Part shown: in pieces, positions 1-42,274 of the stretch | How positions within the stretch are numbered: the first letter of the stretch is position 1 | Layout: every line of letters begins with the position of its first letter | DNA from: Escherichia coli | GTDB lineage: Bacteria > Pseudomonadota > Gammaproteobacteria > Enterobacterales > Enterobacteriaceae | Length of the DNA stretch: 64,000 nucleotides | Strand: one strand, 5' to 3' | NCBI RefSeq assembly: GCF_030384885.1 | Contig: NZ_CP128613.1 | Made by a program: the position numbers and the translations under genes | Notes under the pieces: model-generated | What the model saw: the letters and a program-made list of their open reading frames with translations, nothing else | What the model was told of the DNA's origin: nothing | Database searches by the model: none

Positions 1-262
1 AACATAAGGAACCCGCAAAGAGGCTACAGTTGCCTACTGGCTGACCAAAGGGGATAGCGTGGGTATAGCCTTCCAGCTGGCATGCGCGATCGGCGATCCC
101 GCGACTGACATAACGATCGGTACGGGCATGCTGCAAAAAAGCCTGATCATAAACCAACCGAACAATACCTGTTGCCGCGTCAACTTCGCCCACATGAGCC
201 TGGCGAGTAACTGTGCACCCCGCCAGCGTTATTAATGAAAGAGTCAGAATCAGAAGTCTCAT
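1..262 (-). CDS. yecR: Lipoprotein YecR, N-terminal part (gene runs off the window start)
   Basis: Reverse-complement translation from ATG (complement of 260-262) gives MRLLILTLSLITLAGCTVTRQAHV... with lipobox LAGC; no stop before the window edge, so it is absent from the ORF track; position beside azuC/yecJ/ftnB as in E. coli. Confidence 0.75.
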   Translation of the reverse strand, partial: MRLLILTLSLITLAGCTVTRQAHVGEVDAATGIVRLVYDQAFLQHARTDRYVSRGIADRACQLEGYTHAIPFGQPVGNCSLFAGSLC

Positions 263-426
263 GGTCCAGCCAGAAGAGTAAAAGAAAGCAGTATTTTACG
301 TGTTACAGCGCTGCGACAATGGCCGGAAAAGACGCCTGGCAGGCGCTATTTCTCGCCATCTGTATGTGTCAGAAATGGGGGTGCTGCCTTTTGATTATCA
401 TTTTTATAACATTAAAGGGGTATTTA

Positions 427-442
427 TGTGATTTGCATCACA
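427..442. promoter_or_regulatory. CRP-type palindrome TGTGATTTGCATCACA upstream of azuC
   Basis: Perfect match to CRP consensus TGTGA-N6-TCACA read directly in the sequence; azuC is reported to be catabolite-controlled. Confidence 0.6.
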
Positions 443-524
443 TAAAGATTGATTTTTGTGATGGTTGTCATATTATAAGTGCAAAGACAATAACACCTGC
501 ATAACAAATAGTCGGAGTGCCGCG

Positions 525-611
525 ATGAAACTGCGCAAGATCCTGAAAAGTATGTTCAATAACTATTGCAAGACGTTCAAAGACGTACCGCCAGGCAATA
601 TGTTCCGATAA
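525..611 (+). CDS. azuC: Small protein AzuC (28 aa), encoded on the dual-function AzuCR (IsrB) RNA
   Basis: ATG at 525; translation MKLRKILKSMFNNYCKTFKDVPPGNMFR then TAA matches my recollection of AzuC; too short for the ORF track; intrinsic terminator immediately downstream. Confidence 0.85.
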   Translation: MKLRKILKSMFNNYCKTFKDVPPGNMFR

Positions 612-612
612 C

Positions 613-641
613 AAAAAACCTGCTCCGGCAGGTTTTTTTGT
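613..641 (+). terminator. Rho-independent terminator of azuC/AzuCR
   Basis: Hairpin aaaaaacctgc-tccg-gcaggttttttt with U-tract read in sequence. Confidence 0.8.
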
Positions 642-725
642 GTCCTGATGACGGTGTATGTGACTATCGCTGAAGATGTGAAGCCGCTACTATAACGGCT
701 TTCAAAATGCTATCAGGAGTTTACG

Positions 726-977
726 ATGTCCCAGCCGCTGAATGCCGATCAGGAACTGGTTTCTGATGTGGTTGCTTGCCAGTTGGTTATCAAACAAATT
801 CTCGACGTTCTCGATGTGATCGCACCCGTTGAAGTTCGCGAAAAAATGTCCAGCCAGCTGAAGAATATCGACTTTACTCACCATCCCGCCGCCGCAGACC
901 CGGTCACCATGCGGGCAATCCAAAAAGCCATCGCGCTGATTGAACTCAAGTTTACCCCACAGGGCGAATCCCATTAA
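726..977 (+). CDS. yecJ: DUF2766 family protein YecJ (83 aa)
   Basis: ORF-track 83-aa [19 protein letters not shown]...; matches remembered YecJ; conserved neighbourhood. Confidence 0.85.
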
Positions 978-980
978 AAA

Positions 981-1050
981 ACCGCTGCTTCAAAAAGATG
1001 AGGCAGCGGTTTCTCAAAAACTTCATCGGCGCAATGCATTAGCGCCGATG
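981..1050 (-). terminator. Two hairpins between the convergent yecJ and ftnB; likely ftnB terminator(s), possibly bidirectional
   Basis: Stem accgctgc/gcagcggt (981-1010) and 9-bp stem catcggcgc/gcgccgatg (1024-1050); on the minus strand each is followed by a U-run. Confidence 0.5.
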
Positions 1051-1054
1051 ATGA

Positions 1055-1558
1055 TCAATGCAGCTGATGCGACACGACATTCAGAACATGTTGGTCGGTC
1101 TGCACAGGGCACATACCAGCAAGTTTCGCACTGCGCACTTCATCAAGAATGGTTTGCAGCAACAGGCCATCATGCTGCTGCTCTTTTTCCAGATCGCGCA
1201 GGAAATTGACGGTTGAATCATCATTCAGTTCTTTAGCTTCATCGGCTAACTGTGCCAGCGTGCTTGAACGTTGCTCGTATTCTTCCATCGTTTTTTGGAA
1301 AAGTTCTTCCAGTGAGTTCAGTTTTTCACCGGGAACATCAATGGCTTTAACGATGGGAGTAGCGCCGACACTCTTCATAAAGTTAAACATGCGCATCATT
1401 TGGGTCACGTTACTCTGTGCCTGGGCGCGAAGGAAAGTGGCGGTGCCGTTCAGACTCTGTTCAGAACACCAGTTACTCAGGTGAAGGTAGAGATTGGATG
1501 CGTAAAACTCGCGGTTCATTTGAGAGTTGAGTTTGAGAAGCATTCCAGCGGTTGCCAT
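1055..1558 (-). CDS. ftnB: Ferritin-like protein FtnB (167 aa)
   Basis: ORF-track 167-aa [34 protein letters not shown]...; ferritin-like; matches remembered FtnB (YecI). Confidence 0.9.
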
Positions 1559-2091
1559 ACCTAATATCCTTATATCCAGAAGTGGAGAGGTGCAAGATAA
1601 ATCAAAACACCATAATTACTGTTTGCAGAATAATTCCTTTCTGCCGGTCCGAAATGTGATCGTGGAGTCAATTCTGACGATGATCTGAAATAAGAATAAC
1701 GTCTGAACGGGTATAAGAAAATGCTTAAATCATCAAGTTTATATATTTTTACATTTCATTGATGAAATCAATGTAACTGCAATGAATTTTAATGATGATG
1801 CTTTTTGTATCTTGTTGATATTAATAGGGGGATTTGAATTCATGATGAAGCAATGATTTTTTAAAACGTTTTTTCATTTTTGCGATATGGCTCTCAGTAT
1901 ACGTGTTCTGTTAATTAATGAGCACGGTGATAATTAATGGCGAAATGAATGACGCTCATTTTCCACATCTTTGAGTTGCGGTTATTACACCATTTCAAAA
2001 ACTCAACGCCAGGTAATGCAGCCTATTGACTGGTTAAAAAGAAGACATCCCGCATGGGTACCAAAGACAACAAGGATTTCCAGGCTAATCT

Positions 2092-2230
2092 TATGGATTA
2101 ATCTGCTGCGTGCTCGGTGATTTGTCTGACAAATAAGCTTTTCCTTATGTCTTTTCCCGCTAAATTTATGCACGTTCTCACTGTAATTCTGCGATGTGAT
2201 ATTGCTCTCCTATGGAGAATTAATTTCTCG
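2092..2230. promoter_or_regulatory. Candidate araFGH control region with AraC half-site-like motifs
   Basis: TATGGATTAATCTGCTG at 2092-2108 fits the reverse complement of the AraC half-site pattern (nAGCn7TCCATA); a second TATGGA lies at 2211; exact operator positions not verified. Confidence 0.3.
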
Positions 2231-2354
2231 CTAAAACTATGTCAACACAGTCACTTATCTTTTAGTTAAAAGGTAATGCTTTGTTTTCCGATTAAATTAA
2301 CGAGAGTTATTCGTTTTTGCCCTACACAAAACGACACTAAAGCTGGAGAGAACC

Positions 2355-3344
2355 ATGCACAAATTTACTAAAGCCCTGGCAGCCATTGGTCTGGCAGCCG
2401 TTATGTCACAATCCGCTATGGCGGAGAACCTGAAGCTCGGTTTCCTGGTGAAGCAACCGGAAGAGCCGTGGTTCCAGACCGAATGGAAGTTTGCCGATAA
2501 AGCCGGGAAGGATTTAGGGTTTGAAGTTATTAAGATTGCCGTGCCGGATGGCGAAAAAACATTGAACGCTATCGACAGCCTGGCTGCCAGTGGCGCGAAA
2601 GGTTTCGTTATTTGTACTCCGGACCCGAAACTCGGCTCTGCCATCGTGGCGAAAGCGCGTGGCTACGATATGAAAGTCATTGCCGTGGATGACCAGTTTG
2701 TTAACGCCAAAGGCAAGCCAATGGATACCGTTCCGCTGGTGATGATGGCAGCGACCAAAATTGGCGAACGTCAGGGCCAGGAACTGTATAAAGAGATGCA
2801 GAAACGTGGCTGGGATGTCAAAGAAAGCGCGGTGATGGCGATTACCTCCAACGAACTGGATACGGCTCGTCGCCGTACTACGGGTTCTATGGATGCGCTG
2901 AAAGCTGCAGGATTCCCGGAAAAACAAATTTATCAGGTACCTACCAAATCTAACGACATCCCGGGGGCATTTGACGCTGCCAACTCAATGCTGGTTCAAC
3001 ATCCGGAAGTTAAACATTGGCTGATCGTCGGTATGAACGACAGCACCGTGCTGGGCGGCGTACGCGCGACGGAAGGTCAGGGCTTTAAAGCGGCCGATAT
3101 TATCGGTATCGGTATTAACGGTGTGGATGCGGTGAGCGAACTGTCTAAGGCACAGGCAACCGGCTTCTACGGATCACTGCTGCCAAGCCCGGATGTACAT
3201 GGTTATAAGTCCAGCGAAATGCTTTACAACTGGGTCGCAAAAGGTGTCGAACCGACCAAATTCACCGAAGTTACCGACGTGGTGCTGATCACGCGTGACA
3301 ACTTTAAAGAAGAACTGGAGAAAAAAGGGTTAGGCGGTAAGTAA
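2355..3344 (+). CDS. araF: L-arabinose ABC transporter periplasmic binding protein AraF
   Basis: 329-aa ORF MHKFTKALAAIGLAAVMSQSAMAENLKLGFLV... with signal peptide; matches remembered AraF; followed by araG and araH. Confidence 0.95.
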   Translation: MHKFTKALAAIGLAAVMSQSAMAENLKLGFLVKQPEEPWFQTEWKFADKAGKDLGFEVIKIAVPDGEKTLNAIDSLAASGAKGFVICTPDPKLGSAIVAKARGYDMKVIAVDDQFVNAKGKPMDTVPLVMMAATKIGERQGQELYKEMQKRGWDVKESAVMAITSNELDTARRRTTGSMDALKAAGFPEKQIYQVPTKSNDIPGAFDAANSMLVQHPEVKHWLIVGMNDSTVLGGVRATEGQGFKAADIIGIGINGVDAVSELSKAQATGFYGSLLPSPDVHGYKSSEMLYNWVAKGVEPTKFTEVTDVVLITRDNFKEELEKKGLGGK

Positions 3345-3413
3345 TCTGCCGAAAAAATTCCCCTCTGTATGATGCAGAGGGGGTGTGAACGACCAGTGAT
3401 TCTCGGAGACGTT

Positions 3414-4928
3414 ATGCAACAGTCTACCCCGTATCTCTCATTTCGCGGCATCGGTAAAACGTTTCCCGGCGTTAAGGCGCTGACGGATATTAGTTTTGAC
3501 TGCTATGCCGGTCAGGTTCATGCGTTGATGGGTGAAAATGGCGCAGGAAAATCAACTCTCTTAAAAATCCTCAGCGGCAACTATGCGCCAACCACGGGTT
3601 CTGTAGTGATTAATGGGCAGGAAATGTCCTTTTCCGACACAACCGCAGCACTTAACGCGCGTGTGGCGATTATTTACCAGGAACTGCATCTCGTGCCGGA
3701 AATGACCGTCGCGGAAAACATCTATCTCGGCCAGCTGCCGCATAAAGGCGGCATTGTGAATCGCTCATTGCTGAATTATGAGGCGGGTTTACAACTTAAA
3801 CATCTTGGTATGGATATTGACCCGGACACGCCGCTGAAATATCTCTCCATTGGTCAGTGGCAGATGGTTGAAATTGCCAAAGCGCTGGCGCGTAACGCCA
3901 AAATTATCGCCTTTGATGAGCCAACCAGCTCCCTCTCTGCCCGTGAAATCGACAATCTTTTCCGCGTTATTCGTGAACTGCGAAAAGAGGGGCGGGTGAT
4001 CTTATACGTTTCTCACCGTATGGAAGAAATATTTGCCCTCAGCGATGCCATCACCGTCTTTAAAGATGGGCGTTATGTCAAAACCTTTACTGATATGCAG
4101 CAGGTTGACCACGACGCCCTGGTGCAGGCGATGGTCGGGCGCGACATCGGCGATATCTACGGTTGGCAACCGCGTAGTTATGGCGAGGAGCGGCTGCGTC
4201 TTGATGCTGTGAAAGCACCAGGCGTGCGTACGCCAATAAGTCTGGCGGTTCGCAGTGGAGAAATTGTCGGTCTGTTTGGTCTGGTCGGGGCTGGGCGTAG
4301 CGAATTAATGAAAGGCATGTTTGGCGGTACGCAAATCACCGCCGGTCAGGTTTATATCGACCAACGGCCGATTGATATTCGTAAACCGAGCCACGCTATT
4401 GCCGCAGGCATGATGCTCTGCCCGGAAGATCGCAAAGCGGAAGGCATTATTCCTGTGCACTCCGTTCGCGACAATATCAACATCAGTGCCAGACGTAAAC
4501 ATGTGCTCGGCGGTTGTGTAATCAACAACGGTTGGGAAGAAAACAATGCGGATCACCATATTCGCTCGCTCAACATCAAAACGCCGGGCGCTGAGCAACT
4601 GATCATGAATCTCTCAGGCGGAAATCAGCAAAAAGCCATTCTGGGTCGCTGGTTATCGGAAGAGATGAAGGTCATTTTGCTGGATGAACCTACGCGCGGC
4701 ATTGATGTTGGTGCTAAGCATGAAATTTACAACGTGATTTATGCGCTGGCAGCGCAGGGCGTGGCGGTGCTGTTTGCCTCCAGCGACTTACCTGAAGTCC
4801 TCGGAGTTGCCGACCGGATTGTGGTGATGCGCGAAGGCGAAATCGCCGGTGAATTGTTACACGAGCAGGCAGATGAGCGTCAGGCATTAAGCCTTGCGAT
4901 GCCTAAAGTCAGCCAGGCAGTTGCCTGA
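3414..4928 (+). CDS. araG: L-arabinose ABC transporter ATP-binding protein AraG (504 aa)
   Basis: Track ORF 3369-4928 trimmed to the ATG at 3414 ([17 protein letters not shown]...) to give the 504-aa length of AraG; two ABC ATPase domains ([17 protein letters not shown]). Confidence 0.92.
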
Positions 4929-4942
4929 GTAAGGAGAGTATG

Positions 4943-8295
<3,353 letters not shown>

Positions 8296-8730: not shown

Positions 8731-9232
8731 AACCTGTTCCTTATTCTGTGAACTTCAGGTGACATTAAAGCTTTACTCCTAATGGAGAATCGACGCAATC
8801 CCAACTCAGTCAAACAGGTAAATATTAGTGTGATTATTAGTAAATACAATTAATCAATCACTCTCGGTGATCATATGATTTCAACTGTAATTATAAGAAA
8901 ATATTGTACTGATTCTCCATATTAAACAAGTGGTTAATATATCTAAAACATTTTGTTAACATTAAGTGGGTTGTTGCCTGTCTTTGCCTTTAATCAGTTT
9001 ATTGTGTTGTAAGTGCCTGTTTGTAAATAGATTAACTGATTTTGGATTTGACCAATTATTTATAGCAGATGATTATTTACGGTGAGTTATTTTAACTGTG
9101 CGAAACATCTCATTTCGATTATTACGGTTTCACTTTTGCTTACCATCGGTGTGAAAAACTTTTTAACAGATTGAAATACACCCAAAACAAAAGTATGACT
9201 TATACATTTATGTTAAGTAATTGAGTATTTTA

Positions 9233-9248
9233 TGTGATCTGCATCACA
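9233..9248. promoter_or_regulatory. CRP site of the flhDC class I promoter (TGTGATCTGCATCACA)
   Basis: Perfect CRP consensus palindrome about 270 bp upstream of the flhD ATG, consistent with the known CRP activation site centred near -72 of the flhD promoter. Confidence 0.75.
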
Positions 9249-9314
9249 CATTATTGAAAATCGCAGTACCCCTCCGTTGTATGTGCGTGTAGTGACGAGT
9301 ACAGTTGCGTCGAT

Positions 9315-9512
9315 TTAGGAAAAATCTTAGATAAGTGTAAAGTACCCCCTCTATTTGTAAGGACCTATTAAACCCAATAAGGTGGGGGCTGTTTTATTGC
9401 AGCTTATCGCAACTATTCTAATGCTAATTACTTTTTACCGGGGCTTCCCGGCGACATCACGGGGTGCGGTGAGACCGCATAAAAATAAAGTTGGTTATTC
9501 TGGGTGGGAATA
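9315..9512 (+). promoter_or_regulatory. Long flhDC 5' untranslated leader (approximate)
   Basis: Established knowledge: the flhD transcript starts about 198 nt upstream of the ATG; the CRP site spacing here fits a start near 9312-9315; boundaries approximate. Confidence 0.45.
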
Positions 9513-40716: not shown

Positions 40717-41319
40717 TTATACCGCCTCAGTCAATTCAGGCTGAGGCGTTTCTACTCCCTCCGCATGAATCAACACCAAACCCGGATGATGCCACAAACT
40801 GGCTGGTGTTACGGTTTTACGCTCCCACGGAATCGAACCTAAAAACCAGAATTTCCAGAAAGTGAGTTTTGCGTTCGGATTGCTATTTAGCAGTTCTCCA
40901 AACGTCTCTATTTCACCCACCGGAATACATAACGCCTCTTTATAAATATCAAAAACGAATTTTGAGCAGAACTGGCGGGAAGATTCGTATTTAAAGCCGG
41001 TGTGGTAGAGCTTATGCAACCGTCCGGGGACCTTTTCGACCAGAGCAAGTTTTTGCTCTGCGGTTAAACCTCCTGCGAGGCGGCGAACACCGTAGCGTTG
41101 ATCGGTCGACCGTTCAATAAATCGTGACAAAGTTGTGATTGTGGAGAGCGGAACTCGACTCTCCGCAACCAGGTAATCATCACCGTCATGTCCGATGATT
41201 ATCCCCACATGGTTGCTCCAGCATTTCGAGGCTGCAGAGATTTGCCCAAACAGGCGAGCACCGATGCAGGTAAAAACAATATCACCGGTTTCATATTTAG
41301 CTGGGTAATTTATTTTCAC
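40717..41319 (-). CDS. yebB: Uncharacterised protein YebB (200 aa)
   Basis: [46 protein letters not shown]...; convergent with ruvC with 1 nt between the stop codons. Confidence 0.88.
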
Positions 41320-41412
41320 TATATCAATCCATTATTTATATATAAAACAGCATCTATCTTTCGTGATGGTAAAGCATTAGCATTGTATTATAATAATGAC
41401 AAGGAATGTTTT

Positions 41413-42237
41413 ATGCGGTTATTTATTAATGTGATAATTATAGTTTCGATCAGTCAATGCGTGAATGTATTTGCTCAAGATAATGTCATCCGCTATCCCT
41501 GGCGATATGGACGTATTTCTTTAAATGAGAATAATGAGTTTGTGCCTCAAATTATTCATATGCGTGATGATATCTACGGCGTGGGTGAAGCTGGTGCAAG
41601 CCTTAACGATGCGAGAATGGCGCAAAGTGGTGTCGCCGTGAGGCTTAGCGTTATACAGCAGGGGCAGGTGGTGAATGCTTTACTGGATTTCTACAATAGC
41701 AATAATCAACCTGCTTATATCTTTGAAGGTGGTTTGATGCCTTGCAATAAAGCCTTTGACATCACAACAAGCAACATTGTCCTTGATGGGATGTGTGGAA
41801 TTTATGATGGGGTCGATGGCTGGCAAGTTATTCCTGCGGGTGATCATTATAAAGAATCATTTTCACTCACTCAGGCTTTTGAATTTCTGCCGGGAAAACA
41901 TCATTATAAAATTAATGCCGGAAGTTTTATCATCAGAGTCGGGGATGATATTTTTGCAAGAGAGGACGCCGAAAGCATTCTTTTTGATTTGATTAACTGG
42001 CGATATGGCTATGTGCTAAAAAGTTATGAAAGGGTGTCGAAGTGGGATTTAATGGCAGGGACTTATGTACTGCCTGAATACTCGGGGGATAAAAGAATGG
42101 ATGAGTATCGAATTTACTCAAACCAGGTGTCGATTGATCTTAATGGTGACGAGTTAGCACATACGGAGTCCTATCAGTGGCGAATTGATAGCGGAATGAT
42201 CCCGGAAAAATTCAGCGTTCAGGAACTCGCTGAATGA
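41413..42237 (+). CDS. Hypothetical secreted/periplasmic protein (274 aa), function unknown; first gene of an AT-rich islet
   Basis: Track ORF 41188-42237 trimmed to the ATG at 41413 because the upstream part overlaps yebB on the opposite strand and 41413 has an RBS (AAGGAA); N-terminus MRLFINVIIIVSISQCVNVFA|QDN looks like a Sec signal peptide; hand-counted G+C about 38-40%; no recognised family. Confidence 0.65.
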   Translation: MRLFINVIIIVSISQCVNVFAQDNVIRYPWRYGRISLNENNEFVPQIIHMRDDIYGVGEAGASLNDARMAQSGVAVRLSVIQQGQVVNALLDFYNSNNQPAYIFEGGLMPCNKAFDITTSNIVLDGMCGIYDGVDGWQVIPAGDHYKESFSLTQAFEFLPGKHHYKINAGSFIIRVGDDIFAREDAESILFDLINWRYGYVLKSYERVSKWDLMAGTYVLPEYSGDKRMDEYRIYSNQVSIDLNGDELAHTESYQWRIDSGMIPEKFSVQELAE

Positions 42238-42274
42238 ATCGTCCTCTACCTGCTTGCCAGATACAGAGGCGCGG

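Follow-up and report, generated by a model that had tools for sequence, protein, structure and literature searches.

The 796 bp between ftnB and araF very probably form the shared divergent control region of ftnB (left) and araFGH (right), with no additional gene and with an unconstrained AT-rich spacer at the centre. The locus is already known: two characterised divergent promoters with long regulated leaders share it, so that a classic arabinose-regulon promoter lies back to back with the promoter of a characterised ferritin-like gene. The useful outcome is negative because the long gap needs no hidden gene, and the discovery value of the region is small.

ftnB (1055-1558, minus strand) and araF (2355-3344, plus strand) are transcribed divergently from a gap at 1559-2354 of the window, which is the whole stretch of 64,000 nucleotides of Escherichia coli DNA that was analysed. 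The window is an exact match to E. coli strain 2013C-4282 (NZ_CP027579.1). Annotation is empty in this gap both in the RefSeq record of the source strain and in K-12 MG1655 (NC_000913.3 1986129-1986924). The gap sequence was matched in 5,417 of 5,426 complete E. coli genomes, in single copy and with no gene annotated under the match. An initial annotation had described an unusually long, AT-rich interval with no convincing ORF and no terminator-bounded unit, and this description is borne out. Its coordinates are exact, and 796 bp is the longest spacing that annotated genes leave within the window's first 50 kb, with uspC-flhD (782 bp) as the runner-up. GC content is 35.4% compared to 50.4% for the window and falls to its lowest value, 27.5%, at 1701-1900; of all 796-bp segments of the window, just 0.4% have a GC content as low as that of the gap. 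The longest ORFs encode just 56 and 50 aa, and the sole terminator-like match is a 5-bp stem at 2206-2218 inside the araF promoter. Conserved regulatory DNA (promoter, operator and leader) covers ~490 of the 796 bp and leaves ~300 bp (1765-2068). The source strain and K-12 are 96.1% identical over the gap. Their 31 differing positions cluster in the centre and in the spacer between the AraC sites (2109-2142), and AraC half-sites and the CRP box are unchanged.

The two promoters and their leaders

The features that occupy the gap are as follows.

1559-1686, minus strand: ftnB 5' UTR, 127-128 nt, from the mapped transcription start site (TSS) and the published CsrA leader
1693-1698, minus strand: ftnB -10 hexamer TATTCT, positions -7 to -12 relative to the mapped TSS (1686), conserved across genera
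1714-1729, minus strand: conserved block TTTAAGCATTTTCTTA in the ftnB -30 to -45 region
1738-1752, minus strand: CpxR-type box GTAAAAATATATAAA, pattern GTAAA-N5-GTAAA with one mismatch, ~60 bp upstream of the ftnB TSS
1765-2068, no strand: AT-rich, fast-evolving spacer, GC 34.9%, the only part of the gap without conserved elements
2071-2108, plus strand: putative distal AraC site, araFG2 by position, with half-sites CAAGGATTTCCAGGCTA and TATGGATTAATCTGCTG as a direct repeat 21 bp apart
2120-2134, no strand: palindrome ATTTGTCTGACAAAT between the two AraC sites, moderately conserved
2146-2183, plus strand: putative proximal AraC site, araFG1 by position, with half-sites TATGTCTTTTCCCGCTA (2146-2162) and TATGCACGTTCTCACTG (2167-2183), 21 bp apart
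2195-2210, plus strand: putative CRP site TGTGATATTGCTCTCC, a pattern match centred at 2202.5 that overlaps the -35 region
2230-2245, plus strand: putative weak extended -10-like element G-C-TAAAAC and predicted araFGH start
2244-2354, plus strand: araF 5' leader, ~110 nt, with a predicted start
2274-2287, plus strand: conserved leader block TAATGCTTTGTTTT
2287-2294, plus strand: leader stretch UCCGAUUA, an 8-bp complement of Spot 42 nt 50-57
2318-2325, plus strand: conserved leader block UGCCCUAC, complementary to Spot 42 nt 1-8
2345-2348, plus strand: araF Shine-Dalgarno (SD) sequence GGAG, read from the sequence

The ftnB side is anchored by published mapping. Kim 2012 placed the ftnB TSS at v2 coordinate 1984821(+), which is window position 1686 (124 reads, 128-nt UTR), and the upstream 50-mer given there agrees with the sequence here. 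Pourciau 2019 described a 127-nt ftnB 5' UTR with four GGA motifs, three of which are footprinted by CsrA with BS3 on the SD, and reported that CsrA represses ftnB translation. The four GGA motifs occur at the expected places on the minus strand at 1567-1569 (overlapping the SD), 1575-1577, 1635-1637 (in a hairpin loop) and 1648-1650, and the published footprints are on identical K-12 sequence. The 238 bp adjoining ftnB are identical to K-12 even though the flanking genes diverge by 2.6-3.5%. Across the entire gap, the Term-seq data of Adams 2021 contain just two RNA 3' ends, at window positions 1627 and 1584; each is of low abundance and falls in the ftnB leader.

Conservation extends from this leader into the promoter. 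The ftnB-proximal ~200 bp are conserved in Citrobacter, and a cross-genus alignment retains the leader hairpin that presents GGA. Most relatives carry TATGCT as the ftnB -10 hexamer, and TTAAG..TTTTCTTA is near-invariant over the ftnB -35 region in 23 sequences from ~9 genera. The CpxR-type box is kept as GTAAN-N5-(G/A)TAAA in Citrobacter, Enterobacter (for example, GTAATGTATGGTAAA), Lelliottia and Klebsiella, and ftnB has been published as a CpxR-activated member of the Cpx regulon. A Fur box scan gave a best match of 12/19, which is chance level, and a sigma-70 consensus scan found no promoter; no real terminator was found either.

An FNR box lies farther upstream. FNR has been reported to bind the E. 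coli ftnB promoter unusually far upstream, which agrees with K-12, where the positions equivalent to 1814-1827, ~135 bp upstream of the ftnB TSS, hold a perfect FNR box, TTGATATTAATCAA. The box is degenerate in the source strain, which has TTGATATTAATAGG at 1814-1827 (ATCAA -> ATAGG). At least 4,323 of 5,426 genomes have the K-12 form of a 52-nt segment at this box; 23 of 5,426 have the source-strain form. Destruction of the far-upstream ftnB FNR box by a rare allele of this strain is a by-product of the analysis for specialists. Taken as a whole, ftnB is transcribed leftward from a TSS at ~1686, and its weak promoter would need upstream activators. Their sites would be the CpxR-type box near -60 and, in most E. 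coli, also the FNR box near -135. CsrA bound to the leader GGA motifs, including the SD, represses translation.

The araF side has the architecture of a published promoter. In the araFGH literature, the CRP site overlaps the -35 region, AraC binds upstream of CRP, and every known element is placed downstream of a primer whose window position is 1980. Matches to the 17-bp AraC pattern with at most two mismatches fall at 2071, 2092 and 2146, all on the plus strand; the three lie within 92 bp and two are exactly 21 bp apart. Over the 64 kb of the window, the pattern occurs at chance frequency (38 matches compared to 40.7 expected), and the local cluster is far above local expectation. The half-site TATGGATTAATCTGCTG at 2092 has one mismatch and its partner lies 21 bp away at 2071. 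The second araFG1 half-site, at 2167, was read from the sequence and is weaker, with three mismatches; both araFG1 half-sites are conserved across genera. The gap thus holds two pairs of 17-bp half-sites with a 21-bp start-to-start spacing (2071/2092 and 2146/2167), as in araFGH-type promoters. The araFG2 half-sites are oriented opposite to araI. Directly downstream of araFG1, TGTGATATTGCTCTCC takes the place expected of CRP in this promoter type, between AraC and RNA polymerase and over the -35 region, and it is near-invariant among 82 enterobacterial sequences.

Cross-genus conservation on this side begins at 2069-2071, and the last 285 bp before araF are colinear across genera. In the 82 upstream regions, the invariant columns fall in the cores of the half-sites, in the CRP box and TCCTATGGA..AATTAATTTC.CGCTAAAACTA next to it, in a leader block and in the SD, and conservation collapses directly past 2241. 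The motif order and this conservation fit the published layout with CRP over the -35 region and AraC upstream, which supports a provisional assignment, by position and motif, of araFG2 to 2071-2108, araFG1 to 2146-2183, CRP to 2195-2210 and the -10 element to 2232-2237, after G2230. A mutational study from 1992 reportedly found that the araFGH promoter needs only a weak -10 element, no -35 element and a guanosine just upstream of the -10. With CRP at -41.5, and with the collapse of conservation after 2241, we infer an araFGH TSS at ~2241-2245 and a leader of ~110 nt. Arabinose-bound AraC would occupy the direct-repeat half-sites of the proximal (2146-2183) and distal (2071-2108) sites, and cAMP-CRP at 2195-2210, over the -35 region, would together with AraC recruit RNA polymerase to the weak -10 at ~2232.

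TATGGA at 2092 and 2211 had been described in the initial annotation as compatible with AraC half-sites. The gap has these two occurrences compared to ~0.39 expected at the window-wide rate, and the reading as a half-site holds for one of them. TATGGA at 2092 lies within TATGGATTAATCTGCTG of araFG2. That at 2211 has three mismatches by eye and is not among the matches with two mismatches or fewer; it abuts or enters the CRP right arm and belongs to the -35 region. The promoter-proximal AraC site, araFG1, had been missed. A first promoter model had taken GGTGATTTGTCTGACA (2116-2131) as the CRP site and put the TSS near 2170. This sequence is strain-specific, with K-12 differing at 7 of 11 bases, and the model was dropped because the invariant TGTGAT box at 2195 suits the conservation pattern much better.

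Genome-wide mapping by Kim 2012 assigned a sole TSS to araF, a 3-read signal at window position 2097. This position does not coincide with the predicted start at 2241-2245. The cultures mapped were reportedly not induced with arabinose. A second araF promoter has also been reported from sigma-S in vitro transcription assays.

The araF leader may in turn be controlled by a small RNA. Chen & Gottesman 2017 report that Spot 42 represses the AraFGH transporter. A duplex of Spot 42 region I with the araF leader has an energy of -14.8 kcal/mol; of 1000 shuffles, 22 did as well. In 72 of the 82 sequences, UGCCCUAC retains 7-8 of its 8 pairs with Spot 42. The complementarity of UCCGAUUA to Spot 42 nt 50-57 is not significant by itself. 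An unconstrained duplex of the full-length Spot 42 with the leader was no better than shuffles and was replaced by the region-wise tests. A consensus fold of the araF leader gave no shared secondary structure and no covariation. A Spot 42 pairing site is predicted at UGCCCUAC, through which the ~110-nt leader would be repressed post-transcriptionally.

Origin of the gap length

The length of the gap is most probably due to loss of an ancestral DJ-1-family glyoxalase gene, which fused the two intergenic regions that flanked it. We compared 80 araF loci, with one genome per species. ftnB and araF lie ~790-800 bp apart in Escherichia; in most Citrobacter, Enterobacter, Leclercia and others the distance is ~1,380-1,400 bp. 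The extra DNA in these relatives is a 185-aa gene on the araF strand that ends ~318 bp before araF. Its product belongs to DJ-1/PfpI (PF01965) and matches the DJ-1-family glyoxalase III model TIGR01383. The gene lies between ftnB and araF in 50 of the 80 loci, which is the synteny expected for a gene lost from this position. The flanks of the gene in relatives (~490-520 bp and ~316 bp) sum to about the ~796 bp of E. coli and have a similar AT content.

Decay of this gene can be seen at several stages. It is frameshifted in Leclercia adecarboxylata NCTC13032 and internally deleted in a Citrobacter MAG; in Citrobacter sp. R56, a 442-bp deletion has left only codons ~138-184. Five Enterobacter species lack it cleanly. 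Their gap of 788 bp is as long as two pieces of a gene-bearing congener put together, its 504-bp ftnB-DJ-1 spacer and the final 284 bp upstream of araF; the 590 bp that they lack comprise the ORF and 32 bp. The conservation junction of E. coli at 2069-2070 is essentially the same point as the Enterobacter deletion junction. The 510 bp to its left correspond to the ftnB-DJ-1 spacer of relatives (~490-520 bp, 33-39% GC), the distal ~300 bp of which hardly align even from one Citrobacter species to another. The arrangement in Escherichia is the one without the gene, and its long gap therefore looks like two fused intergenic regions.

No remnant of the gene was detected in Escherichia by a profile HMM on six-frame translations, a search that found remnants in two other loci (L014 and L021) and weakly in two more (L070 and L012). 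The best tblastn hit in Escherichia (E 0.09) was not colinear, and the Escherichia gap has no residual similarity to DJ-1/PfpI of the kind that a pseudogene would retain. The case for loss, as opposed to gain elsewhere, therefore rests on gene distribution and on the independent decay events; loss in the Escherichia lineage is the parsimonious reading, with its direction deduced from these two lines of evidence. Recurrent loss of a DJ-1-family glyoxalase from the ftnB-araF interval of Enterobacteriaceae, which best explains the gap length, is a second by-product of specialist interest.

The central spacer

The spacer at 1765-2068 evolves quickly. Sequences from E. albertii, E. whittamii and further GTDB species representatives of Escherichia align poorly over it, with many substitutions and indels, and both of its flanks are near-invariant across the same set. 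An nhmmer DNA profile of the spacer found no homolog in 75 non-Escherichia loci.

We favour an unconstrained spacer; the strongest competing reading, which we regard as possible but distinctly less probable, is that the spacer is kept for a function, as an H-NS/Fis/IHF platform or as a topological insulator that allows the divergent promoters to work independently. The length of ~790-800 bp is held across Escherichia despite sequence turnover, and the gene-less Enterobacter likewise keep 788 bp. The gap has the low GC content (35.4% compared to 50.4% for the window) that is expected of an H-NS-silenced region. H-NS has been reported to bind and repress ftnB in Salmonella and, by this analogy, H-NS binding of the E. 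coli spacer is likely; FNR, in addition, acts on ftnB from about -135 in K-12. Against a retained function, equal length may simply reflect recent common ancestry, and the sequence itself is free to vary.

A further reading is, in our view, improbable. The centre could be what survives, as a fossil, of the ancestral ftnB-DJ-1 intergenic region and could retain a vestigial rightward promoter, possibly the second araF promoter seen with sigma-S in vitro. The 3-read TSS at 2097 may be a related AraC-independent start, though it lies downstream of the centre. If such a promoter exists, stationary phase or stress would produce a long AraC-independent transcript that runs through the AraC and CRP sites into araFGH, or an Escherichia-specific short RNA.

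A small RNA or small protein encoded in the spacer, for which the initial annotation had seen room, is very improbable. The suggestion has some basis: ~300 bp lie outside any known element, several ORFs of 10-34 aa occur there, AT-rich DNA often has cryptic promoters, and a weak 3-read TSS at 2097 as well as a second araF promoter from in vitro transcription assays are on record. Regulatory DNA, however, takes up ~490 of the 796 bp. In the centre, conservation is poor within the genus and none is detected outside it; the centre has no genus-wide ORF and no structure signal: its RNA folds no better than shuffles on either strand (z +1.0 and +0.7). The ORFs of the centre are not intact past E. 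coli sensu stricto or the nearest clade (each in 3 of 7 Escherichia sequences at most), and all lack a good SD. Nowhere in the gap did an ORF combine an intact frame in relatives, coding-type substitutions and a ribosome-binding site. Transcript data point the same way, with no TSS listed for the centre in Kim 2012 and no 3' end in the Term-seq data of Adams 2021. Cappable-seq and SMRT-Cappable-seq gave no entry for the locus among the matches listed. A permissive E-value Rfam search of positions 1-4000 had no match inside the gap, so that an RNA family is missing in the centre along with a sigma-70 consensus promoter, a real terminator, mapped ends and conservation, which are the marks by which a small regulatory RNA would be recognised. 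The curated K-12 annotation is empty here, yet it includes tiny proteins elsewhere in the window such as AzuC.

It is slightly less probable still that the AT-rich centre is horizontally acquired or mobile-element DNA that was inserted between the promoters. A low-GC sequence that is confined to the genus and has no homolog in its sister genera would suit such an origin, but the spacer had no match in 50,697 phage records and its only matches in a plasmid database were E. coli chromosomes mislabelled as plasmids. Neither terminal repeats, inverted or direct, nor tandem repeats of note occur in the centre, related genera have an equally AT-rich and fast-evolving ~300 bp at the same position, and the sequence is present in one copy in 5,417 of 5,426 E. 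coli genomes.

Least probable of all, to the point of being negligible, is that a 40-aa ORF at 2147-2269 (MSFPAKFMHVLTVILRCDIALLWRINFSLKL...), outside the centre, is a genuine gene for a small protein: Citrobacter and Enterobacter have similar predicted peptides at the corresponding position and the ATG is present in 79 of 82 sequences, but it was rejected as coding because it lacks codon periodicity (column entropy of 0.74/0.71/0.70 at positions 1/2/3 compared to 0.02/0.02/0.31 for the first araF codons) and because the frame stops after 2-15 codons in 15 sequences. This ORF overlaps araFG1, the CRP site and the -10 element and begins ~95 nt upstream of the predicted TSS, so constraint at the DNA level explains its conservation.

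Comparison with known systems

The preferred reading, a shared divergent control region with no additional gene, places each half of the gap in a known system. Control of ftnB (yecI) as known from Pourciau 2019, the CpxR regulon studies and Partridge 2007 involves the same 127-128-nt leader with four GGA motifs; this strain differs from the known promoter in its degenerate far-upstream FNR box. The araF half is the same locus as the K-12 araFGH promoter (Hendrickson, Stoner & Schleif 1990; Hendrickson, Flaherty & Molz 1992; Lu, Flaherty & Hendrickson 1992; Johnson & Schleif 2000), with which it shares two AraC sites upstream of a CRP site that overlaps the -35 region and a weak -10 element. 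Citrobacter, Enterobacter, Leclercia, Klebsiella and other genera have the same ftnB-proximal and araF-proximal blocks and an AT-rich distal ftnB upstream region of similar size, but they carry the 185-aa DJ-1/PfpI gene, whereas Escherichia has neither the gene nor a detectable remnant. Within the same window, the uspC-flhDC region (8731-9512) resembles the ftnB-araF gap in being long (782 bp), AT-rich (34.7% GC) and densely regulated, with a perfect CRP box, but it responds to another set of regulators.

The araF leader and the sequence between the AraC sites

Two stretches of the araF leader are complementary to the small RNA Spot 42, which reportedly represses AraFGH; pairing at either stretch is predicted from sequence. 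Complementarity to Spot 42 nt 1-8 is retained at 7-8 of 8 positions in 72 of 82 enterobacterial sequences. A leader block upstream is nearly invariant among genera (consensus CTAATGCCTTGTTTTA); the leader from the inferred transcription start site to ~2272, just 5' of this block, is strongly variable. A palindrome between the AraC sites has moderate cross-genus conservation (consensus TATTTGTCTGACAAATA).

2120-2134: palindrome ATTTGTCTGACAAAT, between both AraC sites
2274-2287: leader block TAATGCTTTGTTTT (~+31 to +44)
2287-2294: UCCGAUUA, 8-nt complement of Spot 42 nt 50-57
2318-2325: UGCCCUAC, 8-nt complement of Spot 42 nt 1-8

RNA 3' ends in the ftnB leader and gene content of the gap

K-12 Term-seq data place two low-abundance RNA 3' ends within the ftnB 5' UTR, at window 1584 and 1627 on the minus strand (Adams 2021). 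The end at 1627 (-), classed as not Rho-dependent (Adams 2021), comes after the GGA-loop hairpin of the ftnB leader, and this position suggests possible premature termination or a ~60-nt leader fragment. Among related enterobacteria, the space between ftnB and araF holds a DJ-1-family glyoxalase III gene in 50 of 80 species (one genome per species; araF loci within L010-L082, e.g., L019, 3125-3682; also L014, L021, L012 and L017), with independent frameshift, partial-deletion and clean-deletion alleles across Leclercia, Citrobacter and Enterobacter.

Other sites in the window

The window has one other very long, very AT-rich gap, between uspC and flhDC, within which a perfect CRP box lies; a further perfect CRP box is found upstream of azuC. 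Rfam matches to STnc370 and rsmX at 561-671 are sub-threshold (27-33 bits versus gathering scores of 54-56), cover the azuC 3' end and terminator, and are most likely chance similarity to the terminator hairpin. Between ruvC and ruvA, a low-GC stretch (~41158-42165) lies inside 40717-42859, where a “hypothetical protein” CDS overlaps a YebB-family gene and another such CDS follows; relative to K-12, this arrangement may reflect insertion or mis-annotation.

427-442: perfect CRP box, upstream of azuC
8731-9512: uspC-flhDC intergenic region, 782 bp, 34.7% GC
9233-9248: perfect CRP box in the uspC-flhDC intergenic region

Strain divergence and the ftnB FNR box

Identity to K-12 is only 96-97% across the whole neighbourhood (window 1-6000), and the 796-bp ftnB-araF gap is matched at ≥99% identity in only 3 of 5,417 genomes; among GTDB representatives, the closest is “Escherichia sp. 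MOD1-EC7003” (90% over the gap). The window strain, or its 1-6000 segment, is of a divergent lineage. The gap's centre carries a rare allele generally across 1797-1956, FNR box included. The far-upstream ftnB FNR box is perfect in K-12 (TTGATATTAATCAA, equivalent of window 1814-1827), and this allele type occurs in at least 4,323 of 5,426 genomes; the window strain has TTGATATTAATAGG, an allele found in 23 of them, and ftnB induction under anaerobiosis might be altered in the lineage that carries it.
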